Shown: positions 1-57,281 of the stretch, piece after piece
How the letters are laid out: every line of letters begins with the position of its first letter
Numbering within the stretch: the stretch's first letter is position 1
Assembly: GCA_964610445.1 (NCBI GenBank)
Contig: CAZSVV010000003.1
Coordinates: 14,137 to 71,417, forward strand
Direction: 5' to 3'
DNA: 57,281 nucleotides
From: an uncultured Pseudomonadales bacterium
Lineage (GTDB): Bacteria > Patescibacteriota > Microgenomatia > UBA1400 > UBA12108
Translations under genes and position numbers: made by a program
Notes under the pieces: model-generated
What the model saw: only the letters and a program-made list of their open reading frames with translations
What the model was told of the DNA's origin: nothing
Databases searched by the model: none

Positions 1-1
1 G

Positions 2-328
2 TATCTACCAGTTTGGATGGATGATTTTCCGACAACTTCGAGTGAGGACGGACTCACTCATACTACTACCGCGGTTAGAGGAAAAATAATTAGTACAGAT
101 CTCATACCAATTACAATTAAGACCGCCTACATGCCACATTGGAAGCTCACACTAAACGGCTATCCGACAGATATTATCCCAAACAAAGACGGTACTATCC
201 GTACTCATGCTGTGATCCCGCCAGGGGAGTACGAGGTAGAACTTACCTGGCACAAGACTAATCTCGAAAAAATAGGGGTAGTAATCAGTCTCTTCACCAT
301 ATTAATTGTGCTAGGATTAGCGCTATGA
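2..328 (+). CDS. 3' end of a polytopic membrane protein (YfhO/COG5617-like), 5'-truncated by the window edge
   Basis: The frame is open from nt 2 to the TGA at 326-328, so the listed ATG at 17 is probably internal. 'AYMPHWKLTLNGYP...PPGEYEVELTW' plus one terminal hydrophobic helix parallels the C-terminus of the 13023..14672 product ('YYPGWSVNMDKSKNIP...GVHEYEITM' plus terminal helix). Confidence 0.55.
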   Translation, partial: YLPVWMDDFPTTSSEDGLTHTTTAVRGKIISTDLIPITIKTAYMPHWKLTLNGYPTDIIPNKDGTIRTHAVIPPGEYEVELTWHKTNLEKIGVVISLFTILIVLGLAL

Positions 329-1782
329 AAGATGTCTTTACTACCGTCAAACAAAAAGCCCTCCGTGGGGTATTTACTCTAACTTTTCGTAGACTCCTAC
401 TCAAAGTAATAGATACGGTAGGTATTATTTATCTGGCTCGGCTACTCCCTCAAGAATCTTTTGGAGTCTTTGCCATTATCAGTTTTGTTGTCTTTACTTT
501 TCTCTCATTCTTCTCTGATGTTGGGCTCGGTGCCGCTCTTATCCAAAAAGAAAAAATCGAGGACGATGATCTCAAAACTACTTTTACTGTCCAGCAGATC
601 CTAGTCACAGTCCTGCTAGTAGTCGCTTTCTTTGCCGCCACGCCTCTAGCTAGTTTTTACAACTTGGGTAACGAAGGAATATGGCTGATCCGGATGCTTA
701 GCCTCTCACTCTTTATAACTTCTTTCAAAACAATACCTTCAATTCTACTAGAGCGTGATCTCCGCTTTGAGCTCTTAGTGATCCCTGAGGTCATCGAGAC
801 TGTGACCTACAATGTGGTCGCTGTAGTTATGGCTTCATCAGGCTACGGTGTCTGGAGTTTGGTCGTCGCAGTTGTTGCTCGTACACTCTTTGGCGCTATT
901 GCACTCTCCATTATCAAGCCCTGGCCGATCGGCTACCGACTAGCCAAAAATAGTATCCATGACCTGCTTCATTTTGGGGTGCCCTATCAGCTCAACTCAG
1001 TGCTCGCTCTCCTCAAAGACAATCTTGCTCCGACCGTGATCGCACTGTGGTATGGACCCGCTGCCGTTGCCTATGTTAACTTGGCCCAAAACATTAGTAG
1101 TCGGCCACTAGAGCTCTCAACCATCGTCTCCCGCATTACTTTCCCGACCTATTCTCGTATTCAGGGTGACACAGTTAGGCTTAAGAGCTGGATCGAAAAA
1201 TCTATCCATCTCATGGCCACACTTTACTTTCCCGCAATTATTGGACTCCTCGTAACCGCGGAGCCTATTCTTCGCTACCTCTATGCCGACAAAAGCGACA
1301 AGTGGCTCCCTGCCTTAACTACTCTCATCTTTTTCTTGCTCGCTGCCGTCCCAGTCTTTATTACGACGACCTATACCAATGCACTCTACGCGCTCGGTCG
1401 CCCCAAGGTAGTGCTACGCCTCATGGTTCTCTATACCATCCTCACCTGGGGCATTGGCGTGCCACTTATTAGATTGGTTGGCTATAGTGGTATAGCAATT
1501 ACTGTTGCCATTATCACTTACTTGACCATCCCATTAGTTGTCCACGAGATTAACAAGCTAGTGCGTCTCGATACCTGGGAGATGGTCAAGCGACCACTCC
1601 TTGCGAGCATTATCATGGGTGGCGCTACTTATCTGGGAGTGACTACATTTGTGTCTAGCCTACTGACGCTCGTTATAGCAATTCTATTGGGTGGACTACT
1701 CTACTGTGTACTTGTTTATGCACTCGATCACAAAATGCTTAAGGCCGAGCTGGTCAAAGTCTGGCATACTCTGAGACACTAG
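325..1782 (+). CDS. Wzx-like oligosaccharide/polysaccharide flippase (MOP superfamily)
   Basis: 485 aa and highly hydrophobic, with about 12-14 helices. The N-terminal region 'ARLLPQESFGVFAIISFVVFTFLSFFSDVGLGAALIQKE' is typical of Wzx/RfbX-type polysaccharide biosynthesis proteins. ATGA overlap with the upstream gene. Confidence 0.75.
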   Translation: MKDVFTTVKQKALRGVFTLTFRRLLLKVIDTVGIIYLARLLPQESFGVFAIISFVVFTFLSFFSDVGLGAALIQKEKIEDDDLKTTFTVQQILVTVLLVVAFFAATPLASFYNLGNEGIWLIRMLSLSLFITSFKTIPSILLERDLRFELLVIPEVIETVTYNVVAVVMASSGYGVWSLVVAVVARTLFGAIALSIIKPWPIGYRLAKNSIHDLLHFGVPYQLNSVLALLKDNLAPTVIALWYGPAAVAYVNLAQNISSRPLELSTIVSRITFPTYSRIQGDTVRLKSWIEKSIHLMATLYFPAIIGLLVTAEPILRYLYADKSDKWLPALTTLIFFLLAAVPVFITTTYTNALYALGRPKVVLRLMVLYTILTWGIGVPLIRLVGYSGIAITVAIITYLTIPLVVHEINKLVRLDTWEMVKRPLLASIIMGGATYLGVTTFVSSLLTLVIAILLGGLLYCVLVYALDHKMLKAELVKVWHTLRH

Positions 1783-1798
1783 GCTACAATTAGGTTCT

Positions 1799-2701
1799 AT
1801 GACCAGTAGTCTTGCTATTGTTTTTATCGTTTATAACCAATCCAAACTCCTAAATAGTTCTCTCAAACTATTATCAGGTCTCAAGCATGAGCTCCACGTG
1901 GCAGATCTAGGTAGTACCGAGGATGTAGAGAGTGTCGCCAAAGCTATAGGAGCCGAGTATCACCGACTGCCTTACACTAGTGTGGTTGAGATGGTTAGGA
2001 GCCAAGTTTTTGACTTAATCAGTACCGACTATATCCTGTATCTCGATGGTGACGAGTCAGTCACACCAACTCTTATTAACAAGCTAGTCGAGCTATCTGA
2101 GGGTGGGGTGGACTACGTCCGTATTCCTAGACAAAATTATATATTTAACAACTGGGTCCAGGCTAGTCGCTGGTGGCCTGATTACCAGGTTCGCTTCTTC
2201 AAAAAAGGTATGGTCACTTTCCCGACCACTCTCCACTCAGAACCAGTCGTCAATGGTCGTGAGGTAGTGCTACCAGCAACCGCTGAACTTTCGATCAAGC
2301 ATCTCAACTATCAATCACTAGACGAGTGGCTAGAAAAGAACCAACGCTACGCTCGGACTGATGCACAAGATCGTCTAAAAAGTGGGGAAGAATTTAGTAT
2401 TTTCACTGCTACTCGTCTCTCAGTCTCTGAGTTAGTGAGTCGCTTTTTTGCAGGATCTGGTTATGCCGACGGGATGCACGGGCTAGTCCTGAGCATCCTC
2501 CAGTCTTTCTATTATTTCCTCGTTTACGCCTACTACTGGGAAGGCAAAAAGTATGAGAGTAGCCTCTCTGTGGGTGAGGTCAAATCAGTGCCACGCATTT
2601 GGTTCTCCCACGGACTCTCTGAGATTTTGTTTTGGGACAAACAGGACACTGGATTGATTAATAAGATCAAGGGTAAGCTCAAGCGAAAGTTATTAGCATG
2701 A
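1799..2701 (+). CDS. Glycosyltransferase family 2 (GT-A fold; LPS-core beta-glycosyltransferase-like subgroup)
   Basis: It has the N-terminal strand 'LAIVFIVYNQ' and the DxD-type motif 'LYLDGDE'. The C-terminal 'NQRYARTDA' and 'GYADGMHG' motifs are shared with the 5002.. and 12194.. paralogs. Confidence 0.7.
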   Translation: MTSSLAIVFIVYNQSKLLNSSLKLLSGLKHELHVADLGSTEDVESVAKAIGAEYHRLPYTSVVEMVRSQVFDLISTDYILYLDGDESVTPTLINKLVELSEGGVDYVRIPRQNYIFNNWVQASRWWPDYQVRFFKKGMVTFPTTLHSEPVVNGREVVLPATAELSIKHLNYQSLDEWLEKNQRYARTDAQDRLKSGEEFSIFTATRLSVSELVSRFFAGSGYADGMHGLVLSILQSFYYFLVYAYYWEGKKYESSLSVGEVKSVPRIWFSHGLSEILFWDKQDTGLINKIKGKLKRKLLA

Positions 2702-3588
2702 AAAAGCTAAAAAAAATCAAACATGCTGTAGTGCTCATCAACTACCAAGATGCCAAAACTACCGCAAATTGTGTTAATTCAATAAACAAGTCTAAGGATA
2801 CTCCACACATTATCGTAGTTGATAATGGTAGCAGCGACGATTGTATTGGTGAGCTAAAAAAACTCTGTCCCAACCTAGATCTAGTTCTAGCTGGTCGCAA
2901 CCTAGGCTTTTCTGCTGGTAATAATATCGGCATCAAAAAAGCACTGAGGTTAGGTGCGCAGGTCGTCTATATACTCAACAATGATACGCTGGTAGATCCC
3001 AATTTATTTTTTAGAGCTTACCGCTATGTTTCTGGCAAGGCGCGTATCGCAGGTGCCAAGATTTATTATGCCAAAGGATATGAGTATCATGAAGAGTCCA
3101 AAGGGGCAGGGAATATCCTCTGGTATGCTGGGGGATACTTTGATTCTGGTATGGCAACTGCTAGGCACTACGGGATCGACAAACTGGACGATGGGCAGTA
3201 TGAAAAGATTAGACCAGTCGAGTTTGTGACTGGCTGCTTTATGGCTATTCCTCGAGTGGTATTTAACAAAATAGGCAACTTTAGCGAAGAGTATTTCCTC
3301 TATTTAGAAGACACCGATTACAGTTTGCGTGCGCTAAAATATGGGATCGAACTCATGTATAACCCGAGCCTAGTCTTATACCATCTAAACGGTGGCAGTA
3401 CGAGTGCAGGTAGCAAACTAGTCGATTACTACATGACCCGCAATCGCTTTTTAATCGCCAAACGCTTTGGCAGTATTAGGCTCAGATTTGCACTATTTAG
3501 AGAAGGGTTGCGTAACTGGTCTAACCCTATCAGACGACAGGCATTTATTGATTATCTCCTCGGCCGACTAGGTAGTAAGAGTCTATGA
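2698..3588 (+). CDS. Glycosyltransferase family 2
   Basis: Motifs 'IIVVDNGSSDD', 'GFSAGNNIG', 'ILNNDT' and 'LEDTDYSLR' are present. ATGA overlaps at both ends. Confidence 0.85.
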   Translation: MKKLKKIKHAVVLINYQDAKTTANCVNSINKSKDTPHIIVVDNGSSDDCIGELKKLCPNLDLVLAGRNLGFSAGNNIGIKKALRLGAQVVYILNNDTLVDPNLFFRAYRYVSGKARIAGAKIYYAKGYEYHEESKGAGNILWYAGGYFDSGMATARHYGIDKLDDGQYEKIRPVEFVTGCFMAIPRVVFNKIGNFSEEYFLYLEDTDYSLRALKYGIELMYNPSLVLYHLNGGSTSAGSKLVDYYMTRNRFLIAKRFGSIRLRFALFREGLRNWSNPIRRQAFIDYLLGRLGSKSL

Positions 3589-5015
3589 TCAAACTAGAGA
3601 TCAATATTCTAAAAAAGATTACTGCAGTCTTTTTGGTAGTGACTACACTTCTGCTTTACCACAACCTCGGGCGGGATTATCTCTTTGATTGGGACGAGAG
3701 CATCTATGCACAGCTGGGTATAGAGCAGACCACAGGCAACTTACTGACTCCTACCTGGAATGGCGACCTTTGGCTCGAAAAACCTCCACTTATCGCTCAC
3801 TTAACTGCACTCGGATCAAGCCTTTCTACAGATAGAGAGCTAGGGGCGAGGCTATTTATCCCTGTCGCCACACTGATAACCCTAGTCTCAGTCTATGTGA
3901 TAGGAGCACATCTTGGTGGCCCTATCACAGGCTCAGTGGGTGCGATCATGCTTATGTACTTTGAGCTCTTTATTGGTCGCAGTCGAAGTGTAAATACCGA
4001 CATTTTTTTGCTAGCTGGTCTCACTCTCGCAGTGGCTCTAATCCTCAAAAACCGTAAACCCTATTCAGTAGCACTCGCACTCACTCTCGCAATCGCTGCC
4101 AAAGGCCCCGCAGGCCTTCTAGCAATTCTGATTACTCTGCCACTCTTTCTCAACAAGTCAAGAAAATACTTTCTGATTTCGTGTTTCTACATTCTGATTT
4201 ATGTTCTCCCCTGGCATCTCTATCAGCTACTAGTTAATGGCGCCGATTTTTATACCCCATATCTCCTAGAGCAAGTTATCAGGCGCGCTACAGTCCCTAT
4301 CGAGTTTCATATGGAGTCTCGTTGGTTTTATTTTGTACATTTATATCGCGACTTAGGTCTAGGGATCATATTTGCTTCGGCTCTCGGACTACTCGCCACG
4401 TTTAAGAAAAAGAGCTATCTCCTGATATGGTGGGTACTATTACCTCTCGCACTCTTTACGATAGCTAAGACTCGGTTGTCTTGGTATATCCTGCCAGTCT
4501 ATCCAGCTATTGCCTTATCTATTGGTTATATTTTTGAGTACCTAGTAGCTCTAATTGACAAAAAATCCAGGATCCTCGTTGCTACTACGCTAGTAACACT
4601 TTTTGCTCTCCAATCACTCATCCACCTAGCAAGTGTTACTGAGTTTAAGAGGAGAGAGACTACCTATCCCGACCATGTTAGTATCGCGCTCTCACTAGCT
4701 AATCAACATGAGTCTAGTATCGCATTCTTGGTGAGCACTAGTGAGCGGACAGCCGAAGCCATCCTCCCCAAAGATCAGAGGTTAAGCAGTAGCTTTCGCT
4801 ATGGTGGCGCGCCATCAGTCGTTTTTTATAGTGGCAAGCATGTTGCCTACTACTACAATTACGACGATTTTATATCAGATCTCAATGAGGGGGTTCATGA
4901 GTTAGCAGTTGTGACAGAGGGTGACCAGGACAAAATCCCAAGCAATTTTAAACAGATCAAAAATATAGGTGGCTACTACGCTTATCAGAAAGAAAGTACT
5001 TATGCTAACCGTTAG
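3585..5015 (+). CDS. GT-C fold membrane glycosyltransferase, PMT/ArnT-like
   Basis: 476 aa and polytopic. The acidic motif 'FDWDESIYAQ' follows TM1, then 'WLEKPPL'. There is a non-hydrophobic C-terminal domain. Confidence 0.7.
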   Translation: MIKLEINILKKITAVFLVVTTLLLYHNLGRDYLFDWDESIYAQLGIEQTTGNLLTPTWNGDLWLEKPPLIAHLTALGSSLSTDRELGARLFIPVATLITLVSVYVIGAHLGGPITGSVGAIMLMYFELFIGRSRSVNTDIFLLAGLTLAVALILKNRKPYSVALALTLAIAAKGPAGLLAILITLPLFLNKSRKYFLISCFYILIYVLPWHLYQLLVNGADFYTPYLLEQVIRRATVPIEFHMESRWFYFVHLYRDLGLGIIFASALGLLATFKKKSYLLIWWVLLPLALFTIAKTRLSWYILPVYPAIALSIGYIFEYLVALIDKKSRILVATTLVTLFALQSLIHLASVTEFKRRETTYPDHVSIALSLANQHESSIAFLVSTSERTAEAILPKDQRLSSSFRYGGAPSVVFYSGKHVAYYYNYDDFISDLNEGVHELAVVTEGDQDKIPSNFKQIKNIGGYYAYQKESTYANR

Positions 5016-5772
5016 TACCCAGATAGCAAAAGAAGATGACTTATCGGTGTTTGCACGCATGCTAGATAGTGTTAGTTTTGCTGACGAGCTCCTTATCTTT
5101 AACATGGATCGTGACGATAGCGAGGCAAAAAAGCTTTTCTCCAAATACCGTGCACGGGTCATAAATATCAAAACTCCCAAGGTTGTCGAGGAGATCAGAC
5201 AGAGTCAGATCAAAGAGTGCAAATCTGAGTGGGTACTAGTTATGGACTACGACGAAGTTATTCCAGAAATACTTGCTCAAGAAATCAAAAGCATTACCAA
5301 CTCAAAGAAGAAAACATTCAACGCCTACTACATAACTCGCCGCAACTATTCACTTGGTTATCCACTAAAGCACGGCGGCTTTGGCGATGATCTCGTACCC
5401 CGTTTATTCTATAAGTCTGACTTTGTTAGTTGGCCCAAAGAGATCCACGGGATGCCAAAAGTAAATGGCGAGCTCGGAAATCTTGTGAACCCAATGGAGC
5501 ACCACAAAGATGCGAGCCTCGCGCAGATGGTCGCAAAAACTAACAGATATACCGATGTCGAGGCTCGACAGTTTTTTGAGGCAGGAGTTGATCGTGTTAC
5601 CCAACTAACTTTACTTCGCAAAACTATCATGGAGTTTATCAGGCGCTACATTCTCAAAGCCGGCTTCCTCGATGGCAGGATTGGCATAATCCAGGCTCTT
5701 TATCAGAGTTATGCCATCTATCTGCGCTACGCTAAGCTCTACGAACTCCAAAATCAAAAAGGGTCCAAATGA
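5002..5772 (+). CDS. Glycosyltransferase family 2 (same subgroup as 1799.. and 12194..)
   Basis: 'VMDYDEV' acidic motif plus C-terminal 'TNRYTDVEA' and 'GFLDGRIG'. Start chosen at the ATG at 5002 (14-nt overlap). The listed ORF start at 4969 (47-nt overlap) is an alternative. Confidence 0.7.
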   Translation: MLTVSTQIAKEDDLSVFARMLDSVSFADELLIFNMDRDDSEAKKLFSKYRARVINIKTPKVVEEIRQSQIKECKSEWVLVMDYDEVIPEILAQEIKSITNSKKKTFNAYYITRRNYSLGYPLKHGGFGDDLVPRLFYKSDFVSWPKEIHGMPKVNGELGNLVNPMEHHKDASLAQMVAKTNRYTDVEARQFFEAGVDRVTQLTLLRKTIMEFIRRYILKAGFLDGRIGIIQALYQSYAIYLRYAKLYELQNQKGSK

Positions 5773-6806
5773 AAAAAGCTCTAATAGTCTCCCCTTACTT
5801 AGATCACTTAGGAGGAGGGGAGCGCTACATGCTCACCTGTGCGAGCTCGCTAGAGTCGCTAGGTTACCAAGTAAGTATCGGCTGGGACAACCTGGAGTCG
5901 ATAAATAATATCTGTCGCATGCTCTCCATAGAGCTAAAAAATCCTGTCTTAGTCCCAAAGATTAGAGAGCTATACCATAGTCACAACCCACTCGCTATGT
6001 TTATGGCCACCAGGGGATACGATGTCGTAGTTTATCTCTCCGACGGCTCCATTCCCACACTCGGTGGCAAGGTCAATCTGCTCCATATGCAGGTACCATT
6101 TCACAATGTAAATGGATCTAGCTATAAGAATAAGCTCAAACTAAAAACTATAAATAGAGTTATCGTCAATTCCAACTTTACCAAGAAAATTGTGGACCAA
6201 GAATATGACATCAATTCGTTTGTTCTATATCCGCCAGTAAGTGCTCACAACAATATACTTACAAAAGAAAAAATCATCCTCTCGGTTGGTCGCTTTGAGC
6301 CATCCCTCAACGTCAAAAAACAGGATGTGCTTATCAACGCATTTAAAAAATTGTCAGCAACTCTTACAGACTGGAAACTAGTTCTGGTCGGAGGGAGTGT
6401 CGAGGATAACTGGATCAAAGAACTCAAAAATCAGGCTACAGGTTATAACATTGATATCCTACCGAACACTCCGAGCGATACCCTCGTAGATCTGTATAGC
6501 CGAGCTAGTATCTACTGGCACGCAGCAGGCTATGGGGTAGACGAGGCTAAGAGCCCCGATCTGGTCGAACATTTTGGCATAAGCACAGTCGAAGCGATCG
6601 CCTCCCGTACACTCCCGCTAGTGTATAAAGCCGGCGGTCAGACCGAGATCGTCAAACATGATGATCTGCTATGGACTACCGAGGATGAACTAAAAAACAA
6701 AACGATCAAGCTTGCAACACATAGCTTTGGCGACTACGAGAGTACACTCGATATTGCTAGCTTTTCAGAATCAGCTTTTACAAACACTCTAAAGTCATTG
6801 TTATGA
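5769..6806 (+). CDS. Glycosyltransferase family 4 (GT-B fold)
   Basis: 'VEHFGISTVEAIAS' is an E-x7-E type motif. 'ILSVGRFEPSLNVKKQDVLINAF' is a typical GT4 C-domain start. ATGA overlaps at both ends. Confidence 0.8.
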   Translation: MKKALIVSPYLDHLGGGERYMLTCASSLESLGYQVSIGWDNLESINNICRMLSIELKNPVLVPKIRELYHSHNPLAMFMATRGYDVVVYLSDGSIPTLGGKVNLLHMQVPFHNVNGSSYKNKLKLKTINRVIVNSNFTKKIVDQEYDINSFVLYPPVSAHNNILTKEKIILSVGRFEPSLNVKKQDVLINAFKKLSATLTDWKLVLVGGSVEDNWIKELKNQATGYNIDILPNTPSDTLVDLYSRASIYWHAAGYGVDEAKSPDLVEHFGISTVEAIASRTLPLVYKAGGQTEIVKHDDLLWTTEDELKNKTIKLATHSFGDYESTLDIASFSESAFTNTLKSLL

Positions 6807-10687: not shown

Positions 10688-10688
10688 G

Positions 10689-13021: not shown

Positions 13022-13022
13022 T

Positions 13023-48280: not shown

Positions 48281-48889
48281 ATGAACTTTCCCCTCAAAGA
48301 CAAACACGGCAAAAGTTATACCTGGAGCGAAGCCTTTTTTGGCAAAGCAATCCCGAGACTAGAGTCATACCTCCTCGACTTTACTCTCATGTGCTTAGAT
48401 TTAACTACCCTTATCCCGAGCCATACTCTCCGTAACTTTATATGGCGTAGTGTCGGCATCAAAATAGGTAAGAGCTCAACTCTCCATACTGGCGTCCGCG
48501 TGTATGATCCGCGCAATATCCAGGTAGGAGTAGGGACCATAATCGGTCGAGGTGTTTTTATCGATGGGCGAGATAAGGTCTCAATCGGTAGTCATACTAG
48601 TATCGCCAGTGAGGCGATGATCTACAGTAGCGAGCATGATCTAGCAGCTGCCGATTTTCGTGCCGTGAGCGAACCAGTCAAAATCGGTGATTATGTCTTT
48701 ATCGGTCCACGCTCCATTATCCTCCCAGGTGTAACTATCGGTGATCGAGCTGTAGTGGGAGCTGGCGCTGTAGTTACCAAAGATGTCGGAGAAGGCGAAA
48801 TAGTGGGCGGAGTTCCAGCCAAAGTAATAGGAGAGCGTAAGCTAAAAGCTGCCAATTACCGCCTAGGTCGTTTTAAACTATTTCAGTAG
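48281..48889 (+). CDS. Hexapeptide-repeat (left-handed beta-helix) O-acetyltransferase, WcaF/WbbJ-like
   Basis: The N-terminal hydrophobic segment is followed by 'LRNFIWRSVGIKIGKSS'. Hexapeptide repeats follow: 'IQVGVGTIIGRGVFI', 'VSIGSHTSIASEAMI', 'VKIGDYVFIGPRSII' and 'VTIGDRAVVGAGAVV'. Confidence 0.85.
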   Translation: MNFPLKDKHGKSYTWSEAFFGKAIPRLESYLLDFTLMCLDLTTLIPSHTLRNFIWRSVGIKIGKSSTLHTGVRVYDPRNIQVGVGTIIGRGVFIDGRDKVSIGSHTSIASEAMIYSSEHDLAAADFRAVSEPVKIGDYVFIGPRSIILPGVTIGDRAVVGAGAVVTKDVGEGEIVGGVPAKVIGERKLKAANYRLGRFKLFQ

Positions 48890-49856: not shown

Positions 49857-51518
49857 ATGCGGCGCATCTTAGCCTGGTTAGACAATAATCTCCTCACTAT
49901 CCTCACTGGATTTTTGATAGTATTTATTCCTCTGTATCCCAAGATCCCGATGGCGGAGCTCATCCAGGGTTACATTGTACGTATGCGCCTCGAAGATCTG
50001 GTCGTGATGGCAACTAGTCTCCTCTGGCTGGTGCAGCTACTGCGACGTCGGGTCCACCTACCCAAAAACTACCTCTCTGTCTCATTCTTCGCATACCTCT
50101 GGTTTGCACTACTCTCTGTCCTCTCATCACTCTTTATTACTGAGTCTACTCCACTAGAGAAGGCTCATGTCCTCAAGCTGATCCTGCATTACTTCCGCCG
50201 TATCGAATACTTTGCCCTCTTCTTTATAACCTACAGCTCTATTAGATCTAAAAAAGATCTCTCACTCTTCTTAAAAGTCGCGCTTATTACTACTATCGGG
50301 ATTGTCTTATACGGGATAGGTCAAAAGTACTTTTACTTCCCTGCATTCTCGACGATGAATCGTGAGTTTAGTAAAGGTGTGAGGCTCTATCTGCAGCCCA
50401 ACACTCGTCTCTTTAGTACTTTTGGTGGTCATTATGATCTTGCGGGTTACTTAACTATCGCCCTAAGCTTTGTCTTACCAGCTGCGTACTTAGCCAAAAA
50501 GAAGCTCGCCAAAATTGGGTTATATACCCTCAGTGTCATTGCATATTGGTGCTTAGTCTTAACAACCTCACGTACTTCATTCATTGGCTATCTAGTTGGC
50601 ACTACTATTGTTTGTTACCTCTTAGTCAAATATCGTGGCTGGTGGTGGAGCATTAGGCACTACGTCCTCACTATGTTTATGAGTCTCCTTATCATGTTTA
50701 GCTTTAGCACGCTCCTTGAGCGCTTTACCCAGGTTATTCCTGATCAAAAAACCCGCGATACTATCCTCACTCTCCAAAAAATAATCAATCAACCATTTGT
50801 GAGTGAGCCACAGGGCAAGGACACAGTTGCAGAATTGCCAAGTCTCCTCGCGTTTATTTTTAACAACAAACAACTCAAAACCATCGATCTAACCGACGCC
50901 GAAAAAACACAGCTTGATATCGTCGCCTCAAGCTCCGATATGCCACCGAGTCCAGTCAAGCCTACTCCTACACCTCGTGCTGATCTCCCGACTGACGTGA
51001 GTGAGGAATCTGAGTCGATTAGAGTCCAAACTGCCGAAGATGAAGGGAGAGAATATACAGGTCCACAGTACAGCGCCAACGCCCTCAAATACGGCCTATC
51101 AATGGGTATCAGGTTAGACGTTCTCTGGCCTAATGCTATCCGAGGTTTTATGACCAACCCACTCCTCGGTACCGGCTATGCAACATTAGTCAAAAGTAAT
51201 GTCGGAGAGTTTACCTATGCCGAGAGTACTGACAATGACTATTTGCGAATGCTCGGAGAGACTGGGATACTGGGTACGATCGCATTCCTCGCGACCATCT
51301 ACCTAGTCATCAGATATAGCTACCTCATCCTCAAATCTAGCAATGACCAAGTAGATCTCCTCGCACTCGGGGCAATCGGTGCTACAGTCGCACTACTCGT
51401 GACCGCTACCTACATCGACATTTTTGAGAGCAGCAAAGTCGCCTATACCTACTGGATGTTAGCCGGTATGGTTGCATATCGCTTTGACAACTTGGCCAAA
51501 CTTAAGGAGAAAAAATAA
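49857..51518 (+). CDS. O-antigen ligase/polymerase family membrane protein (Wzy_C-type)
   Basis: It is polytopic. The Wzy_C-like core is 'LVLTTSRTSFIGYLVG', and the distal motif is 'ESTDNDYLRMLGETGILG'. The large loop contains a P/S/T/E-rich insert. Confidence 0.7.
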   Translation: MRRILAWLDNNLLTILTGFLIVFIPLYPKIPMAELIQGYIVRMRLEDLVVMATSLLWLVQLLRRRVHLPKNYLSVSFFAYLWFALLSVLSSLFITESTPLEKAHVLKLILHYFRRIEYFALFFITYSSIRSKKDLSLFLKVALITTIGIVLYGIGQKYFYFPAFSTMNREFSKGVRLYLQPNTRLFSTFGGHYDLAGYLTIALSFVLPAAYLAKKKLAKIGLYTLSVIAYWCLVLTTSRTSFIGYLVGTTIVCYLLVKYRGWWWSIRHYVLTMFMSLLIMFSFSTLLERFTQVIPDQKTRDTILTLQKIINQPFVSEPQGKDTVAELPSLLAFIFNNKQLKTIDLTDAEKTQLDIVASSSDMPPSPVKPTPTPRADLPTDVSEESESIRVQTAEDEGREYTGPQYSANALKYGLSMGIRLDVLWPNAIRGFMTNPLLGTGYATLVKSNVGEFTYAESTDNDYLRMLGETGILGTIAFLATIYLVIRYSYLILKSSNDQVDLLALGAIGATVALLVTATYIDIFESSKVAYTYWMLAGMVAYRFDNLAKLKEKK

Positions 51519-52937
51519 GTGAAAAAACTAAACTCTATTTTGATCTTTTTGATCATAATACTAGGCGCAACCATGCGGTTATATCGTCTCGATGCGCCTT
51601 TAGCCGACTGGCACAGTTGGCGCCAAACTGATACGGCGAGCGTCGCCAGGGAATATGTTAAAAAGGGGATAGACCTACTCCATCCGACTTATCATGATCT
51701 TAGTAGCATCCCGTCAGGTCTCGACAATCCCGAGGGTCATCGTTTTGTTGAGTTCCCGATCATTAGTGCGCTACATGCCACTCTAGCCAAAAACTATCCT
51801 GCACTCAGTATAGTGGAGTGGGGTAGGCTTCTCTCAGTGATAGCTTCGTCTATCTCGATCGGCCTTATTTATCTCATCATGAAGCAGGTTAGTGGCAACC
51901 TCGCTGCGACGGTTGCAGCCTTTGTCTATGCGACACTCCCTTATAACATTTTTTATGGTCGTGTCATCCTGCCTGAGCCTCACTTAGTATTATTTATGCT
52001 CGCTGCTCTCTACTCATTTATCCGCTATTACGAGACTGGTCGGGTGCTATCATTATTACTCTATACAGCAGCTACAACTTTAGCCGTGCTCATGAAGCCA
52101 ACCGCGCTAGTCGTAGCAATACCGATCGCTCTCTACTCGCTATTTGGAACCAAACTTAGCTTGAAAAGGTTGGGTATTGTTGCGTTAATGAGTGCTCTCG
52201 CAGTCTTGCCATACGCATGGTGGCGCAGCTACGTGGCTAGCTATCCAGCAGGCATTCCTGCTAATGCATGGCTATTTAATGGTAATGGGATTAGGTTCAA
52301 AGGTGCCTGGCTCAGATGGCTTTTTGGTGATCGTATCGGACGTCTCATCCTCGGCTACTGGGGCATGATCCCACTGGCGTTTGGTCTCATCGGTCTCGGT
52401 AGGAAAAAATCTGAGACCACAATAGTTGGCGGTCTAGCACTCGGTAGCCTCGTGTACATGTCAGTTATTGCAACCGGCAATGTTCAACACGATTACTACC
52501 AGATCCAGATAATTCCGAGTCTAGCTATGCTGATGGGTGTCGGCGTTAGCTACGTCTATTCTCTCCGGAAAACATTATTTTCTAAGCTTACTTTCTACTT
52601 TCTACTCGGTACTTGTTACTTTATATCCCTTGCTCTTGGTTGGTACGAAGTCAGGGGTTACTTTAATATTAATAACCCAGCCATCGTGGCAGCGGGTGAG
52701 CGGATCGACAAAATAACTAAGCCAGATGACAAAGTCATCGCTCCCTACATGGGTGATACTGCCTTCCTTTTTCAGACTAATAGGACTGGCTGGCCGATCG
52801 GAGGGGACATAGATCTCAAAATCAAATCAGGTGCTAGCTACTATGTCACGACCACTCGTGATGCCGAATATCAGGAGCTAATAAAGAAGTATACTTTAGT
52901 CGAAGAAACCGATCAGTACAGCATAATTAAGCTATGA
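51519..52937 (+). CDS. GT-C fold membrane glycosyltransferase (ArnT/PMT_2-like)
   Basis: GTG start directly after the upstream stop. The first loop reads 'PLADWHSWRQTDTASVAREY'. 472 aa, polytopic, with a soluble C-terminal domain containing 'DDKVIAPYMGDTAFLFQTNRTGWP'. Confidence 0.7.
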   Translation: MKKLNSILIFLIIILGATMRLYRLDAPLADWHSWRQTDTASVAREYVKKGIDLLHPTYHDLSSIPSGLDNPEGHRFVEFPIISALHATLAKNYPALSIVEWGRLLSVIASSISIGLIYLIMKQVSGNLAATVAAFVYATLPYNIFYGRVILPEPHLVLFMLAALYSFIRYYETGRVLSLLLYTAATTLAVLMKPTALVVAIPIALYSLFGTKLSLKRLGIVALMSALAVLPYAWWRSYVASYPAGIPANAWLFNGNGIRFKGAWLRWLFGDRIGRLILGYWGMIPLAFGLIGLGRKKSETTIVGGLALGSLVYMSVIATGNVQHDYYQIQIIPSLAMLMGVGVSYVYSLRKTLFSKLTFYFLLGTCYFISLALGWYEVRGYFNINNPAIVAAGERIDKITKPDDKVIAPYMGDTAFLFQTNRTGWPIGGDIDLKIKSGASYYVTTTRDAEYQELIKKYTLVEETDQYSIIKL

Positions 52938-54139
52938 AAATCCTCATGTTAACCCCTTATCTCCCGTACCCGCTGGTCTCGGGGGGTCAGATTAGGACTT
53001 ACAACCTCCTCAAAGCCTTGAGCACCAAACACGAGATCACGCTCTTTGCCCTGATTAAAGAAGATTCAGAACGGGAACACCTCTCGGAGCTCAAAAAATA
53101 CTGTAGCAAAATAATCTTATTCAAAAGAACCCGTCATCCTTTTGTGTTACGCAATATCCTCCTTGCTGGCTTTACGGCTTACCCATTTGTGGTGACCCGC
53201 AACCTCCCGCTAGGTATGGCAGGTGCGATAGAAAAGGAGCTCGCAACCACCGCTTATGACCTGATCCACGCAGAGACTTTTTACATGATGCCCAATATCC
53301 CAGATACTAAGATCCCGATTATCTTAGCTGAGCAAACAATTGAATATCTGGGTTACCAGGACTACATGAAAAAAGCTCACCCACTCCTTAGGCCTATCCT
53401 CGCGATCGATGTCGCCAAGATCAAATATTGGGAGCGACATTACTGGAAAAAGGCCGACAAGTTAATCACCATGTCTGAGGAAGATAAGCAGTTTATCGAA
53501 AAAGAATTGGGGACTAAGACTAACACTAGTGTCGTCGCCAACGGGGTAGACCTCTCCTATTTTTCCGCTCTCAAAAAGAAACTCCCCAAAGATCCCACAG
53601 TCCTCTTTGTCGGGACCTTTAAATGGCTGCCCAACAAAGAGGCGGTCGAAGAAATAGTGACCAAGATCTGGCCTCTTATCAAAAAAAAGTTGCCGACCGC
53701 CAAGCTTAAGATTGTTGGATTTTCACCTACCCCTCACATCCAGTCATATGCAACAGACCCTTCAATCGAAGTACTAGGCGCCATCAAAGATATCCGCGAA
53801 GCTTTTGCGACCAGTCACATGCTCCTCGCACCAATCAGGAGTGGCAAGGGGACTAGGTATAAAGTGCTCGAAGCCATGATCACAGGCACACCAGTAGTGG
53901 CCACTAGCTTGGCTGCCGAGGGGATAGAGCTCACAGATGGTCAAAATGTCTTGATCGCTGATACAGTTGATGATTTAGCAGCGAGTACTGTCAAGCTGCT
54001 CAAAGATAAAGCTCTCCAAACCCGCCTTGGTGAGGCAGGTCGGAGTGTAGTCAAACGCTCCTATAGTTGGGATGGCATCGCCAAACAGCTAGATGCAGTT
54101 TATCAAGAGTTCAAAATCTCAAAGAGTAAAAAGGGGTAA
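52934..54139 (+). CDS. Glycosyltransferase family 4
   Basis: 'MKILMLTPYLPYPLVSGGQIR', 'VLFVGTFKWLPNKEAV' and 'GKGTRYKVLEAMITGTPVVAT' are present. ATGA overlap with the upstream gene. Confidence 0.85.
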   Translation: MKILMLTPYLPYPLVSGGQIRTYNLLKALSTKHEITLFALIKEDSEREHLSELKKYCSKIILFKRTRHPFVLRNILLAGFTAYPFVVTRNLPLGMAGAIEKELATTAYDLIHAETFYMMPNIPDTKIPIILAEQTIEYLGYQDYMKKAHPLLRPILAIDVAKIKYWERHYWKKADKLITMSEEDKQFIEKELGTKTNTSVVANGVDLSYFSALKKKLPKDPTVLFVGTFKWLPNKEAVEEIVTKIWPLIKKKLPTAKLKIVGFSPTPHIQSYATDPSIEVLGAIKDIREAFATSHMLLAPIRSGKGTRYKVLEAMITGTPVVATSLAAEGIELTDGQNVLIADTVDDLAASTVKLLKDKALQTRLGEAGRSVVKRSYSWDGIAKQLDAVYQEFKISKSKKG

Positions 54140-54145: not shown

Positions 54146-55048
54146 ATGAAGCAAAAACCTGATTTATCAATCATCATTGTCTCGCACAATAGTCACGATT
54201 TTTTGCGTCAAGCGCTCCTTTCGCTCGCTACTCAAACAAATATCACTTACGAAACAATAGTTGTCGATAACCTAAGTACAGATAACACCCTAGCACTCTT
54301 AAAAAACGAGTTCGGAGGGGTTAAGGTAATTAAGCGTGATACCTCTATCGGCTTTGCCGCTGCTAACAATGTAGGGATCAAAGCAGCTATTGCCGACACA
54401 CTACTTTTTATGAATCCCGATATTAGCTTTATTAATAGCACCGACCTCGCAGACTGCTACAGACGCCTGACTGGCGATAACAAGATTGCTTGCCTAGGTC
54501 CCAGAGTCACGCTATCACTCACTGGCGAGATCGACGCTACTTCACACCGCGGCTTCCCGACTCCATTTGCGAGCTTTTGTCACTTCTTTGGTCTTTCTAG
54601 TTTATTACCGAGTGCAGCTATATTTAATCAATACACAAAAAAGTATCTAAGTTACGACAATGAACATGAGATCGATGCGATCGGTGGCATGTTTATGATG
54701 ATAAAACGTGAGGCGGGGGAGAGTATCGGTTGGTGGGACGAGACTTTTGATTTTTATGGTGAGGACCTAGATCTATGCTACCGGCTTTGGCAAACAAACT
54801 TGAGAGTCCTCTATTATCCCTCTGTCACTATCAAGCATTTTAAAGGGGTAACTACGGGCATGAGCAAAGCGAGTAGAGCTGTCACTACTGCCTCAGCCGA
54901 AAAAACACGCCAGGTCCGCCGCTGGTCCATCCAAGCGATGGAGATTTTTTATCGTAAACATTACCAAAAAAAGTATCCATTTATAGTTAATCAACTAGTA
55001 TATTTGGGTATCAAAATACTTTATATAATTCGCGTAGGTCTTACCTAA
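54146..55048 (+). CDS. Glycosyltransferase family 2
   Basis: Motifs 'LSIIIVSHNS', 'IVVDNLSTDNT', 'GFAAANNVG', 'LFMNPD' and 'FYGEDLDLCYR' are present. Confidence 0.85.
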   Translation: MKQKPDLSIIIVSHNSHDFLRQALLSLATQTNITYETIVVDNLSTDNTLALLKNEFGGVKVIKRDTSIGFAAANNVGIKAAIADTLLFMNPDISFINSTDLADCYRRLTGDNKIACLGPRVTLSLTGEIDATSHRGFPTPFASFCHFFGLSSLLPSAAIFNQYTKKYLSYDNEHEIDAIGGMFMMIKREAGESIGWWDETFDFYGEDLDLCYRLWQTNLRVLYYPSVTIKHFKGVTTGMSKASRAVTTASAEKTRQVRRWSIQAMEIFYRKHYQKKYPFIVNQLVYLGIKILYIIRVGLT

Positions 55049-55068: not shown

Positions 55069-55108
55069 ACTTTAAAAACTTTATAAACTTTATGAACTTG
55101 GAACTTGT
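55069..55108 (+). repeat. Phased tandem repeat ACTTTAAAA / ACTTTATAA / ACTTTATGA / ACTTGGA / ACTTGT, directly abutting the ATG at 55109
   Basis: Read directly from the sequence. There are three consecutive 9-bp units (55069-77, 55078-86, 55087-95) followed by 7-bp and 6-bp degenerate units. Confidence 0.7.
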
Positions 55109-56212
55109 ATGAGAATCGCAATTGACGCACGCTTTTATGGGACAGAGCACACAGGGCTCGGTCGCTATACTACAAACGTCCTAAGTTATCTCCCAGACCA
55201 CCTCAAAGATCACGAGCTTTTTGTACTCTTACGCAGAAAGTATTTTGATACTCTGACACTGCCCGCCAACTGCACCAAAGTCCTCTTTGACGTCCCTCAC
55301 TACACTTTTTCTGAACAGCTCTTATACCCTCTAAAGCTCGCTTCACTAAAAGTAGACCTCTTATACACACTCCACTTTAATACTCCTATTTTGACAAAAA
55401 TCCCAACTGTAGTAACAGTACATGATCTAATTAAGTCTTACTTTGCGGGTCGTGAGACTACTACCAGAGCCCCCTGGCTATACCATCTCAAGCGAGCTGG
55501 CTACAATCTAGATGTGAGGCATAGCTTGCTAAATGCAAATGCAGTAATAGTCCCAACCAATACAGTCAAAAATCAGATCCTGGCTAACTACCCTCAAGTC
55601 AAACCAGAGCATATCCACCCTATCCCCGAAGCTCCTGATCTCAAATTTATGCACAAAATTAAAGGAACTAACGCTCCTCAATTATCATTTGATCTACCCG
55701 ACAAATATCTTTTGTTTGTCGGTAATGCTTACCCTCACAAAAATCTCCCTGTACTATTAGAGGCGCTCAAATTACTTAAGGATCCATCGCTCCACCTCGT
55801 GATAGTTAGCAAGCTCTCTCCCTTCCTCTCGCGTGTCCTAGCACCATACGAACCCAAAAATATCCACGTCTTGTGCGAGCTAAACGATAGCGAGCTGTAC
55901 ACCGTTTATCAAAATGCTACTGTGCTCGTCACCCCATCACTCATGGAAGGGTACGGCCTTGTCGGGTTAGAAGCGATGATGCTCGGAGTGCCTGTGATCG
56001 CGAGCAACATCCCAGTCTATCGCGAAGTTTATGGCGACCGTGTTACATATTTTGAGGCAAATAGCTCCGATCAATTAGTTGAGGCAGTCAAATCGGTACT
56101 AGCGAACGCTCGTCCAAAACCACTCAAGTTTACTCGCACCTGGGATAACGTCTCACAATCTATCGCGGAGGTGATTAATGCGAGTTGCGCTCGTCTACGA
56201 TCGACTAAATAA
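55109..56212 (+). CDS. Glycosyltransferase family 4 (mannosyltransferase-like subgroup)
   Basis: 'MRIAIDARFYGTEHTGLGRYT', 'TVHDL', 'LLFVGNAYPHKN' and 'SLMEGYGLVGLEAMMLGVPVIASNIPVYREV' are present. Confidence 0.85.
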   Translation: MRIAIDARFYGTEHTGLGRYTTNVLSYLPDHLKDHELFVLLRRKYFDTLTLPANCTKVLFDVPHYTFSEQLLYPLKLASLKVDLLYTLHFNTPILTKIPTVVTVHDLIKSYFAGRETTTRAPWLYHLKRAGYNLDVRHSLLNANAVIVPTNTVKNQILANYPQVKPEHIHPIPEAPDLKFMHKIKGTNAPQLSFDLPDKYLLFVGNAYPHKNLPVLLEALKLLKDPSLHLVIVSKLSPFLSRVLAPYEPKNIHVLCELNDSELYTVYQNATVLVTPSLMEGYGLVGLEAMMLGVPVIASNIPVYREVYGDRVTYFEANSSDQLVEAVKSVLANARPKPLKFTRTWDNVSQSIAEVINASCARLRSTK

Positions 56213-57281
56213 AACCGGTGGTGCCGAGCGTGTGCTCGTAGCATTTAGTGAACTATTTCCGGACGCTGATTGGTATACCAGTGTCTGGGACCCGAGTGGC
56301 GCTCCCTTTAGCAAGAGCTGGAAAGTGACATCGAGCTTTATCAGTAAAATCCCATTTTTAAGACGTCGCCACGAGATCTTGCCACTACTCATGCCATTTA
56401 TTTTTGAATCGTTTGACTTTACTCCATATGACCTCGTAATCAGCATCGGGAGTGCCGATTCTAAGGGGATTGTTACCAGACCCGAGACACTGCATATCAA
56501 CTATTGCCTTACTCCCACCCGCTACCTCTACTCTCATAGTGAGGAATACTTAACCAACAAACTCTACCAGTTACTCTCTAAGCCACTGCGTGCTTGGGAC
56601 CAGGTCGCATCTACCCGCCCAGATATAATGATAGCAATTAGTACTCAAGTGAAAAAAAGAATTAAACAGTATTACAATCGGGATAGTGAGATCATATTTC
56701 CACCAGTTGATACGAAGAGGTTTATGCACTTCGAGCGCGATCGCGCCCGAGAAATGCCTCCAGACGCGAAGCAGTCTGGGAGACCCGACTCTTATTTCCT
56801 CGTCGTCTCCCGCCTCGTCTCTTACAAGAAAATTGATACTCTAGTCAAAGCATTTAACAAACTTCCTAACAAGAATCTAGTCATCGCTGGGATCGGGAGT
56901 GAGATGACTAGGCTCAAGAAATTGGCTGGTAAAAACATCACCTTTTTGGGTAGTGTATCTGACTCTGACTTACCTAGTCTCTATCATCATGCCTCTGCGT
57001 ATCTACAGGCGAACGAAGAAGATTTTGGGATCAGCATGGTCGAAGCTCAGGCTGCAGGGTTACCAGTCATAGCCTACGGGTGCGGGGGGGCATCCGACAT
57101 TGTCAAAGATGACAAGACTGGTATACTTCTCAGAGTCAACTCTATTGAGAGTTTTGTTCAAGCGATTGACAATTTTGACTCTAAGCGTTTTGATAGGGAG
57201 GCCTGCCGAAAGAATGCAAAACGCTTTGATACCGCAGAATGGACTCAAAAAATAATGGAAAGGATAGATAGTTATGTCGAC
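56178..57281 (+). CDS. Glycosyltransferase family 4, 3'-truncated by the window edge (absent from the supplied ORF track)
   Basis: My own translation from the ATG at 56178 gives 368 stop-free codons reaching the last base of the window. It reads 'MRVALVYDRLNKTGGAERVL...YFLVVSRLVSYKKID...EEDFGISMVEAQAAGLPVIAYGCGGASDIV', which includes an E-x7-E motif. It overlaps the upstream gene by 35 nt. Confidence 0.75.
   Translation, partial: MRVALVYDRLNKTGGAERVLVAFSELFPDADWYTSVWDPSGAPFSKSWKVTSSFISKIPFLRRRHEILPLLMPFIFESFDFTPYDLVISIGSADSKGIVTRPETLHINYCLTPTRYLYSHSEEYLTNKLYQLLSKPLRAWDQVASTRPDIMIAISTQVKKRIKQYYNRDSEIIFPPVDTKRFMHFERDRAREMPPDAKQSGRPDSYFLVVSRLVSYKKIDTLVKAFNKLPNKNLVIAGIGSEMTRLKKLAGKNITFLGSVSDSDLPSLYHHASAYLQANEEDFGISMVEAQAAGLPVIAYGCGGASDIVKDDKTGILLRVNSIESFVQAIDNFDSKRFDREACRKNAKRFDTAEWTQKIMERIDSYVD

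Follow-up and report, generated by a model that had tools for sequence, protein, structure and literature searches.

A window of 57,281 nt (positions 1-57281; all coordinates are window-based) from a member of Candidatus Woesebacteria in the candidate phyla radiation (CPR/Patescibacteria) probably carries most of a conserved super-locus for envelope-glycan assembly, in which a large battery of polytopic glycosyltransferases of the GT-C type would form an extracytoplasmic assembly line. We assign this reading a probability of roughly 0.6. The locus extends past both ends of the window and exceeds 57 kb.

The gene census amounted to 54 genes: 48 open reading frames (ORFs) with a length of 150 aa or more (47 on the plus strand), four small genes with family matches (a DUF2304 protein, a Gp49-like toxin, a helix-turn-helix (HTH) antitoxin and a Bro-N fragment) and one gene truncated at each end of the window. 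Fifty-three of the 54 lie on the plus strand, exactly the number given in a first-pass annotation that had been made from the sequence letters. The coding fraction is 99.3%, and the genes are packed in an operon-like manner, as 30 of the 53 junctions overlap, 19 have a gap of 0-30 nt and the widest gap is 66 nt. This strong one-strand bias is not peculiar to the window, since related loci are equally co-directional. About 36 genes encode glycosyltransferases: 11 GT2-like (ten ORFs above the Pfam Glycos_transf_2 cut-off and the paralogue at 4969-5772), ten GT4 (nine complete, one of which is fused to an alpha/alpha-toroid domain, and one running off the 3' end), 14 complete GT-C-like and a fifteenth GT-C cut by the 5' end. 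The earlier estimate of about 35 transferase genes, with about 11 GT2, about ten GT4 and 14-15 large polytopic GT-C-like proteins, therefore holds. GT-Cs are the largest enzyme class in the locus, with a density of ~0.26 per kb. Besides the transferases, the Pfam census comprised two Wzx/MOP flippases, one Wzy_C protein, two NAD-dependent epimerase/dehydratases and one UDP-GlcNAc 2-epimerase, together with three methyltransferases, one hexapeptide acyltransferase and one protein of the endonuclease/exonuclease/phosphatase (EEP) family.

The GT-C-like genes, and one further conserved membrane protein lying among them, are given below (TM, transmembrane helix; TM1, the first of these; AF2, AlphaFold2; L followed by a number denotes a related locus).

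2-327, + strand: fifteenth GT-C-like gene, PTPS_related type, 3' end only (108-aa fragment); matches the C-termini of PF10131 proteins (P0113, 1.5e-25)
3585-5015, + strand: GT-C, PMT_2 type, motif F-DWDES after TM1; PMT_2 3.5e-10; 7 TM; motif identical in L081
6803-8149, + strand: probable GT-C, motif F-DWDQN; PMT_2 0.0024 (below cut-off); phmmer 2.8e-6 to 9047-10687
9047-10687, + strand: GT-C, PMT_2/PMT, motif NWDEV; PMT_2 1.2e-15, PMT 1.4e-12; ArnT 5ezm 0.003
10650-12179, + strand: GT-C of a family without Pfam or NCBIfam model, motif F-V-D-E-D-D-N; AF2 model and Foldseek
13008-14672, + strand: GT-C, PTPS_related (PF10131), motif H-D-G-x-x-H-x-x-R; PF10131 in most homologues
15678-17462, + strand: GT-C, PMT-like paralogue, motif HDEV; PMT 0.0036; BLASTP 6e-16 to 9047-10687; ortholog PMT 5e-4
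17471-19273, + strand: GT-C, PMT_2, motif IDEV; PMT_2 1.8e-6; BLASTP 5e-19 to 9047-10687
19260-20900, + strand: GT-C, PMT_2/PMT, motif GDEV; PMT_2 and PMT both 3.9e-6; 32% identical to 9047-10687 (1e-52)
22681-24060, + strand: GT-C-clan membrane protein, DUF2079; PF09852 3.7e-39
25004-25957, + strand: conserved 317-aa membrane protein, no family; N-terminal TM helices (3 by hydropathy scan) and a soluble C-terminal domain
25954-27249, + strand: GT-C, distant PMT_2 relative, motif YWPV-R-DWDA; PMT_2 matches in the family; AF2 model and Foldseek
33877-35457, + strand: GT-C, DUF2142 (PF09913), motif P-D-E-Q-x-H; homologues carry PF09913 and/or PMT_2
35464-36597, + strand: probable short GT-C, motifs FRGNIDDPELY and ELQPLxKYFFG after TM1; L083 ortholog PMT_2 8e-5, below cut-off
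43657-45003, + strand: GT-C, PMT_2, motif LDEA; PMT_2 1.1e-12; motif kept in L082 and L083
51519-52937, + strand: GT-C, PMT_2/PMT; PMT_2 6.5e-14, PMT 1e-7; DUF2142 profile 5e-8

The 14 complete proteins were assigned by different routes: seven score above Pfam cut-offs, two are sub-threshold paralogues, two were placed by the Pfam matches of their homologues and two by AlphaFold models with Foldseek searches, and one is only probable. The GT-C-clan cut-offs were passed for PMT_2/PMT by the proteins starting at 3585, 9047, 17471, 19260, 43657 and 51519, and for DUF2079 by that at 22681. Homologues indicated Pfam GT-C-clan membership for three further ORFs (13008, PTPS_related; 33877, DUF2142; 25954, PMT_2), whereas PMT/PMT_2 matches remained below the cut-off for 6803 and 15678, and for 35464 were found in an ortholog only. 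The protein encoded at 6803-8149 also matches other ORFs of a GT-C-rich related locus, L131 (phmmer 3e-9), and both motifs of 35464-36597 are invariant in five orthologs. NCBIfam gave no match for the eight membrane ORFs without a clear Pfam match, nor for two unassigned ORFs. Taken together, the GT-C-like proteins of the locus can be assigned to at least six sequence families. In-house hidden Markov models of the GT-C families barely cross-detect one another, the sole cross-match being that of DUF2142 to 51519-52937, and are thus unusable as a negative test.

The fold test was run on two of the GT-C-like proteins, 10650-12179 and 25954-27249. None of the 70 homologues of the former, whose true start is probably at 10689, carries any Pfam domain, and no NCBIfam match was obtained. 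Its AlphaFold model (pLDDT 94.5, pTM 0.93) contains an alpha/beta C-terminal domain, and the top 15 Foldseek matches in the PDB were all GT-Cs (E from 2e-4, probability ~1.0, query TM-score (TMq) 0.43-0.48). STT3, ALG12, AftA, PglB, EmbA/C, AftD, AftB and Pmt1-2 led the matches, while transporters scored below 0.2. The protein encoded at 25954-27249 has 526 relatives, and PMT_2 is matched by 30 of 77 sampled family members. Its model (pLDDT 94.6) again gave exclusively GT-Cs among the top 15 matches (E 0.03-1, TMq 0.31-0.48), beginning with STT3, ArnT, AftA, ALG3, ALG9 and Emb.

An acidic motif in the loop after TM1, which the first-pass annotation had pointed out for most of the large membrane proteins, is present where listed above and is conserved in homologues and orthologs. 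Within the 10650 family (F-V-D-E-x-D-N, 66 sequences), D34 and E35 are at least 90% conserved, and W114-D115 is invariant in the 25954 family (77 sequences). The DUF2142-type family of 33877 (P-D-E-x-x-H, 75 sequences) retains P35 and H40 in 99-100% and D36/E37 in 100% of its members, and the PTPS_related family of 13008 (H-D-G-x-x-H-x-x-R, 113 sequences) keeps H39 in 96%, D40 in 97% and R47 in 94%. The motifs DWDES, DWDQN, NWDEV, HDEV, IDEV, GDEV and LDEA are all identical in orthologs of 62-89% identity; beyond the four families above, eight proteins had a motif that their orthologs share unchanged. In the model of 10650-12179, the D-E pair is located at the start of the first helix after TM1, the position that holds the catalytic Asp in solved GT-C_A enzymes; the acidic loop would face the cell exterior.

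The overall architecture of the proteins is in line with this assignment. A simple hydropathy scan predicted 6-10 TM in 12 of the 14 GT-C-like proteins and four each in 22681-24060 and 35464-36597; such a scan undercounts, as both AF2 models show at least 11 long helices. Soluble tails of ~110-180 aa follow the last predicted TM, in agreement with the soluble C-terminal domains described earlier and with the alpha/beta domain of the 10650-12179 model.

The predicted supply of a lipid-linked donor, its transfer across the membrane and the processing of the product involve the following genes.

20897-21553, + strand: polyprenyl-phosphate sugar synthase, GT2 of the PpgS/GacI/AglJ/DPMS type; NCBIfam AglJ 1e-31, PpgS 7e-31
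21544-21879, + strand: DUF2304 small membrane protein, homologous to the synthase stimulators GacJ and Rv3632; PF10066 3e-16
325-1782, + strand: Wzx/MOP-family flippase, 485 aa, ~11 TM; Polysacc_synt_3 9.5e-61
39695-40972, + strand: second Wzx/MOP-family flippase; Polysacc_synt 1.2e-21
49857-51518, + strand: Wzy_C-domain membrane protein; Wzy_C 9e-11; 8 TM

The NCBIfam scores of 20897-21553 lie below the equivalog cut-offs, and its best PDB match was DPMS 5mlz (1.6e-10), followed by ArnC and GtrB. It is the only GT2 of the window with polyprenyl-phosphate glycosyltransferases as best matches; by their PDB matches, the other GT2s are closest to ordinary elongating or protein-directed GT2s. The TM-bearing GT2s at 48913 and 54146 and the GT2 at 12194 were considered as additional lipid-P-sugar synthases and rejected as unsupported, since the solved structures nearest to them are those of chondroitin and heparosan synthases, GalNAc-transferases, GmaR and SunS. 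The synthase/DUF2304 pair is flanked by GT-C genes, with 19260-20900 directly upstream and 22681-24060 two genes downstream, and this neighbourhood indirectly supports the use of a polyprenyl-phosphate-linked donor by the GT-Cs. In Streptococcus pyogenes, GacI and GacJ make GlcNAc-P-undecaprenol, GacJ acting as a stimulator of GacI; flipping of this lipid is tentatively ascribed to GacK, a Wzx-family protein, and its sugar is transferred by the GT-C GacL (bioRxiv 10.1101/180810). The Mycobacterium tuberculosis pair PpgS/Rv3632 produces polyprenyl-P-GalNAc, which is used by the GT-C Rv3779 (PMC3485146). By analogy, the Wzx-family proteins of the window could be GacK-like flippases of polyprenyl-P-monosaccharides, or they may flip PP-linked oligosaccharides. 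The Wzy_C protein may act as a ligase or O-oligosaccharyltransferase instead of a polymerase.

From the family and fold identities, the motif conservation, the operon-like packing and the synteny we infer a donor, an acceptor, an order of steps and a final product as follows. Cytoplasmic GT2 and GT4 enzymes, fed by the two epimerase/dehydratases and the UDP-GlcNAc 2-epimerase, would build lipid-linked intermediates on a polyprenyl carrier, and the three methyltransferases and the acyltransferase probably tailor the sugars or the glycan. The PpgS/GacI-like GT2 with its GacJ/Rv3632-like DUF2304 partner would produce a polyprenyl-monophosphate sugar, and the two Wzx/MOP-family proteins would move lipid-linked species to the outer face of the membrane. 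There, the 14-15 GT-Cs of at least six sequence families would add residues in different linkages or positions, each bearing a conserved acidic residue in its predicted first outer loop, with the soluble C-terminal domains present in most of the battery plausibly binding the acceptor, and the Wzy_C protein would polymerise or ligate the product. The extensive extracytoplasmic glycosylation predicted by the first-pass annotation is thus supported, with functions assigned from family and fold. Its suggestion that this glycosylation is layered on a Wzx/Wzy pathway is no more than a possibility: two Wzx-family proteins and one Wzy_C protein are present, but the window lacks a priming phosphoglycosyltransferase and the roles of the Wzx and Wzy_C proteins are ambiguous.

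The arrangement is conserved. The UDP-GlcNAc 2-epimerase assigns the window to Candidatus Woesebacteria, in which its closest relatives occur (97% identity in DALYFH010000007.1 and 83% in JAGOVG010000002.1), and the window DNA is colinear with both contigs (95% over 13.5 kb and 81% over 19.3 kb, respectively). The synteny comparison proposed with the first-pass annotation revealed that gene order is shared with five independent assemblies, L001, L002, L081, L082 and L083, plus L084, and is thus kept in six. Between them, L081, L082 and L083 span window positions 1,799-45,003 without a change of order, the proteins being 45-89% identical, and L084, a contig of 964,590 bp, keeps the order of the first 22 kb at ~58% identity. 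The Pfam-less 10650-type GT-C is missing in L081, and the DUF2079 gene is present in L001 and missing at that position in L081, L082 and L083. A scan for the Pfam-less 10650 family yielded 65 metagenomic loci; the long ones often possess a shorter co-directional core (Wzx ... GT4-GT2-GTC-GTC-GT4-GT4 ... GT2-WzyC-GTC-GT4), and reach 4-8 GT-Cs per 21 kb when additional PMT_2 and YfhO ORFs are counted. The recurrence of these smaller co-directional versions suggests that the window is an enlarged form of a locus type widespread in this part of the tree; it is neither a single-genome oddity nor an assembly artefact. A metagenome scan with the GT4-toroid fusion protein as query gave no match.

The comparison with relatives also yielded several observations on individual genes. 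The tandem PMT-like trio at 15678-20900 forms, with a fourth copy 5 kb upstream (9047-10687), an old paralogue group of 23-32% identity, and the trio is kept in L081 and L084. In these two loci an extra ORF of 369-370 aa without a family (L081 12671-13783, L084 12668-13777) sits between the GT4 gene and the first gene of the trio; the window lacks it at the equivalent junction, 15678-15697. At 20844-21665 of L081, the position of the DUF2079 gene holds a 186-aa ORF followed by an AbiEii-family toxin gene, which is another toxin-antitoxin or abortive-infection element within a glycan locus.

Among described systems, the streptococcal GacI/GacJ/GacK/GacL pathway (bioRxiv 10.1101/180810) resembles the locus in its short GT2 synthase followed by a DUF2304 activator (here 20897-21553 and 21544-21879), in its Wzx-family flippase for a lipid-P-sugar and in its GT-C transferring the sugar outside the membrane. 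However, the streptococcal system uses one GT-C to add one side-chain sugar to a rhamnan that is made in the cytoplasm and exported by an ABC transporter, whereas 14-15 GT-Cs of at least six families, 21 GT2/GT4 genes and no ABC exporter were found in the window. The GtrA/GtrB/GtrC and GT136 pentofuranose systems likewise unite a flippase with a synthase of a lipid-P-sugar and with a GT-C whose TM1 is followed by an extracytoplasmic loop, and rare loci with several GT-Cs have also been noted (PMC11127046). In contrast to these three-component systems, no GtrA-, SMR- or MATE-type flippase was recognised here, and the ratio of GT-C to synthase is ~15:1 instead of 1:1. Wzx/Wzy loci for O-antigen or capsule share the Wzx-family flippases, Wzy_C, many GT2 and GT4 genes, the sugar-nucleotide enzymes and the one-strand, operon-like packing, but GT-Cs dominate here where such loci have none or one, and the window holds no initiating phosphoglycosyltransferase or chain-length regulator. 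The PMT (GT39) and ArnT (GT83) enzymes are similar in their PMT/PMT_2 matches, a loop-1 D-E followed by a P-P-L-like segment, about 7-8 or more TM, as counted with a simple hydropathy window, and a soluble C-terminal part; still, the identity of 9047-10687 to ArnT is detectable over only ~70 residues, and nothing in the window points to a protein or lipid A acceptor.

A parallel in terms of logic is mycobacterial arabinogalactan and lipoarabinomannan (LAM) assembly (EmbA/B/C, AftA-D, Mpt; PMC3485146), in which many GT-Cs use one polyprenyl-P-sugar donor and the polymer is made on the outer face. It shares the homologous PpgS and DUF2304 pair and GT-Cs with soluble C-terminal domains that are partly clustered in the genome, and 10650-12179 has Foldseek matches to AftA, AftB, AftD and Emb. 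Unlike in mycobacteria, there is no sequence-level Emb/Aft orthology (9-14% identity in structural alignments) and no DPPR/DprE-type donor pathway, and the host is a CPR bacterium with a genome of ~1 Mb. As the window contains one clear polyprenyl-P-sugar synthase for many GT-Cs, its logic appears nearer to mycobacterial arabinan/mannan assembly than to Gtr-type decoration.

The mycobacterial arabinogalactan cluster, Rv3779-Rv3805c, contains about six GT-Cs in ~35 kb, roughly 0.18 per kb compared to ~0.26 per kb here, and is to our knowledge the densest GT-C cluster described. The first-pass annotation had named no described system of such GT-C density. The density is indeed a record, but with the mycobacterial cluster as a partial precedent it is not a new principle.

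Several results weigh against an extracytoplasmic GT-C assembly line. Neither Glycos_transf_4 nor Bac_transf was matched by any window ORF in Pfam (0 matches), so that no priming phosphoglycosyltransferase was found, although this enzyme may be encoded outside the window. The Pfam scan also detected no LCP ligase and no chain-length regulator, and a GtrA- or SMR-type flippase was not found in the window. The TM-scores of the fold searches are moderate (0.4-0.5), with weak Foldseek E-values (0.03-0.1) for 25954-27249, whose top matches are nonetheless all GT-Cs. The GT-C assignment of 35464-36597 is only probable: hhalign against two GT-C families returned probabilities of 8% and 2%, from an alignment of five close sequences. 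The membrane protein encoded at 25004-25957 had no family match in the Pfam, NCBIfam and homologue scans and could not be placed as a GT-C; it is conserved in L001, L082, L083 and L084 (L084 relative, phmmer 4e-26), its stop and the start of the GT-C gene 25954-27249 overlap, and it may be a partner subunit of that GT-C. Finally, the single-donor argument fails if further synthases are encoded elsewhere in the genome.

With these points in mind, other explanations were considered. The window could represent a hypervariable locus of the serotype type and not a conserved core pathway, with a Wzx/Wzy glycan decorated by many Gtr-like three-component side-chain additions under phage/host pressure. 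Such a history would fit the single genes gained or lost among relatives (the 10650-type GT-C, the DUF2079 gene and the 369-370-aa ORF), the toxin-antitoxin pair and the truncated Bro-N gene at module borders (see below) and a GC content as low as 37-41% in the middle of the locus. We nevertheless regard it as unlikely, as more than 40 kb of order and content are kept down to 53-58% protein identity, far above the norm for serotype loci, and a single lipid-P-sugar synthase in the window faces 14-15 GT-Cs. That the locus serves mainly protein O-glycosylation is quite unlikely. In this case, pilins, S-layer or other surface proteins of the episymbiont would receive single sugars from PMT/ArnT-like GT-Cs and a preassembled oligosaccharide from a PglL/PilO-like Wzy_C protein. 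Three GT-Cs do pass the PMT (PF02366, GT39-type) model, 9047-10687 (1.4e-12), 19260-20900 (3.9e-6) and 51519-52937 (1e-7), and the loop-1 D-E is present in the first two; moreover, the Wzy_C domain is common to O-oligosaccharyltransferases, and the nearest matches of the GT2 at 12194-13021, confined to its N-terminal region, are GmaR and SunS, both of them protein/peptide glycosyltransferases. However, the PMT_2/PMT models match ArnT as well and therefore do not separate protein-directed from glycan- or lipid-directed enzymes, no gene for an acceptor protein is located in the window, and fifteen GT-Cs of six families exceed any known system of this kind.

It is highly improbable that the GT-C-like ORFs encode transporters or structural membrane proteins, or that an assembly chimera produced the locus. 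In favour of this, family matches are lacking or sub-threshold for several ORFs, but the top fold matches are exclusively GT-Cs, with transporters at TM-scores below 0.2, the acidic residues at the catalytic position are conserved, and the same gene order occurs in six independent assemblies. The outcomes that the first-pass annotation had named as fatal to its proposal were not observed: no membrane ORF matched a transporter family except the two expected Wzx flippases, both Pfam-less modelled proteins adopt GT-C folds and the first-loop acidic residues are conserved.

If the assembly-line reading is extended, Woesebacteria, and probably many Microgenomates, might make their principal envelope glycopolymer largely outside the cell by at least 15 GT-Cs from one polyprenyl-P-sugar donor, in an independently evolved equivalent of arabinan/mannan synthesis in mycobacteria, with one or more GT-C families missing from Pfam, NCBIfam and probably CAZy; at this breadth the proposal is possible yet doubtful. 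As judged from sequence, all building blocks belong to known superfamilies, and the donor module is assigned to the GacI/GacJ-PpgS/Rv3632 kind. What is new is how many and how diverse the GT-C genes of a single co-directional block are, and that such a block is present and conserved in an ultra-small CPR genome; in addition, at least one GT-C family lacks a curated model in Pfam and NCBIfam. CPR/Patescibacteria have minimal genomes and have shed most biosynthesis. That a block of more than 57 kb with ~36 transferases has been kept across deep divergence in a minimal genome suggests that the surface glycan is key to the biology of the lineage, with possible roles in host attachment, phage evasion or envelope integrity. 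Should the glycopolymer be made outside the cell, an estimated 5% at least of a roughly 1-Mb genome would be devoted to it, and the architecture of the surface glycan would count among the central, conserved investments of these episymbionts. The locus would also offer a compact natural library of GT-Cs with confident predicted structures (two modelled) and clear candidates for catalytic motifs, a system outside the Corynebacteriales in which the logic of 'one lipid donor, many GT-Cs' can be tested, and markers for surveying surface-glycan diversity in metagenomes. In the literature search no paper was found that links GT-C enzymes to CPR bacteria; a paper on a Microgenomates genome merely counts '29 glycosyl transferases' (PMC7143001).

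The remaining glycosyltransferase and accessory genes of the window are as follows (SAM, S-adenosylmethionine).

1799-2701, + strand: GT2; Glycos_transf_2 7e-9
2698-3588, + strand: GT2, rhamnosyltransferase-like; Glycos_transf_2 4e-13; TIGR01556 3e-21, below its cut-off
4969-5772, + strand: GT2-like paralogue, no Pfam match; phmmer 2e-31 to the GT2 at 12194-13021, full length
5769-6806, + strand: GT4; Glycos_transf_1 1.5e-22
8154-9065, + strand: GT2; Glycos_transf_2 1.5e-21
12194-13021, + strand: GT2; Glycos_transf_2 1.5e-23; best PDB matches GmaR and SunS (N-terminal part only)
14624-15697, + strand: GT4; Glycos_transf_1 4e-23
21881-22657, + strand: GT2; Glycos_transf_2 9e-31
24063-25007, + strand: NAD-dependent sugar epimerase/dehydratase; Epimerase 1e-53
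27236-28315, + strand: GT4; Glyco_trans_1_4 9e-10
28299-29033, + strand: SAM methyltransferase; Methyltransf_23 and Methyltransf_11 ~2e-11
29037-30089, + strand: UDP-GlcNAc 2-epimerase; Epimerase_2 4e-110
30086-32323, + strand: GT4 with C-terminal alpha/alpha-toroid domain; Glycos_transf_1 5e-17; C5-epim_C, pectate-lyase, GH127 and GH88-like matches, residues 390-700
32314-33186, + strand: FkbM-type methyltransferase; Methyltransf_21 2e-27
33179-33901, + strand: SAM methyltransferase; Methyltransf_23 3e-18
36630-37601, + strand: NAD-dependent sugar epimerase/dehydratase; Epimerase 3e-50
37613-38335, + strand: EEP-family protein; Exo_endo_phos 3e-15
40932-41765, + strand: GT2; Glycos_transf_2 1.4e-11
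41762-42826, + strand: GT4; Glyco_trans_1_4 4e-22
42810-43655, + strand: GT2; Glycos_transf_2 1.3e-26
44987-46075, + strand: GT4; Glycos_transf_1 7e-30
46082-47185, + strand: GT4; Glycos_transf_1 2.4e-29
48281-48889, + strand: hexapeptide-repeat acyltransferase; Hexapep 2e-15
48913-49851, + strand: GT2 (TM-bearing); Glycos_transf_2 2e-27; best PDB matches chondroitin and heparosan synthases
52934-54139, + strand: GT4; Glyco_trans_1_4 2e-23
54146-55048, + strand: GT2 (TM-bearing); Glycos_transf_2 1.2e-19
55109-56212, + strand: GT4; Glycos_transf_1 7.5e-29
56178-57281, + strand: GT4 gene running off the 3' end of the window; 368-codon open frame; phmmer 2e-10 to window GT4s

The toroid domain of the GT4 fusion at 30086-32323 comprises ~350 aa and has weak matches to glucuronyl C5-epimerase, pectate lyase, GH127, GH88 and LanC-like proteins. 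The fusion is kept at 56-97% identity in four relatives and adjoins the UDP-GlcNAc 2-epimerase gene; the protein may be a polymer-level epimerase or lyase-like modifier. The nearest relatives of the UDP-GlcNAc 2-epimerase outside Woesebacteria are mostly archaeal (Methanoregula, Archaeoglobi, Micrarchaeota, Thermoplasmatota; 46-53% identity), which hints at inter-domain transfer.

Traces of mobile elements were found at two positions. Between two glycan modules, at 38999-39649, a Gp49/HigB-like toxin (1e-14) is encoded together with an HTH_3 antitoxin (1e-11), and a near-consensus sigma-70-like promoter, TTGACA-17-TATAGT, is located at 39318-39346. As this segment (~0.75 kb) is absent from the 95%-identical relative L002, it represents a recent insertion or deletion. 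At 47208-48214 there is a truncated gene similar to Bro-N/anti-repressors that covers only the first 112 of 274 profile positions (phrog_15286, 8e-34) and has the appearance of a decayed mobile element left at a module border. It is overlapped by the sole minus-strand ORF (47600-48214, 204 aa, no family), which is possibly not a genuine gene. A phage or plasmid origin of the locus was rejected, as mobile traces are limited to the toxin-antitoxin pair and the truncated Bro-N gene.

Scans of the window for tRNAs and Rfam families gave no matches. Promoter- and terminator-like sites in the region from 36 to 50 kb were no more frequent than in shuffled sequences, and module borders are therefore not definable in this way. 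The GC content is 37-41% in the middle of the locus (16000-36000), whereas the first 10 kb and the last 16 kb have 43-47%, mostly 44-47%, and this drop may reflect separate histories of the modules. On the strand with nearly all genes, 25 of 28 two-kb windows have a negative GC skew (cumulative -1.59), the reverse of the usual G-rich leading/coding strand; an unusual strand composition disparity has been reported for a Microgenomates genome (PMC7143001).

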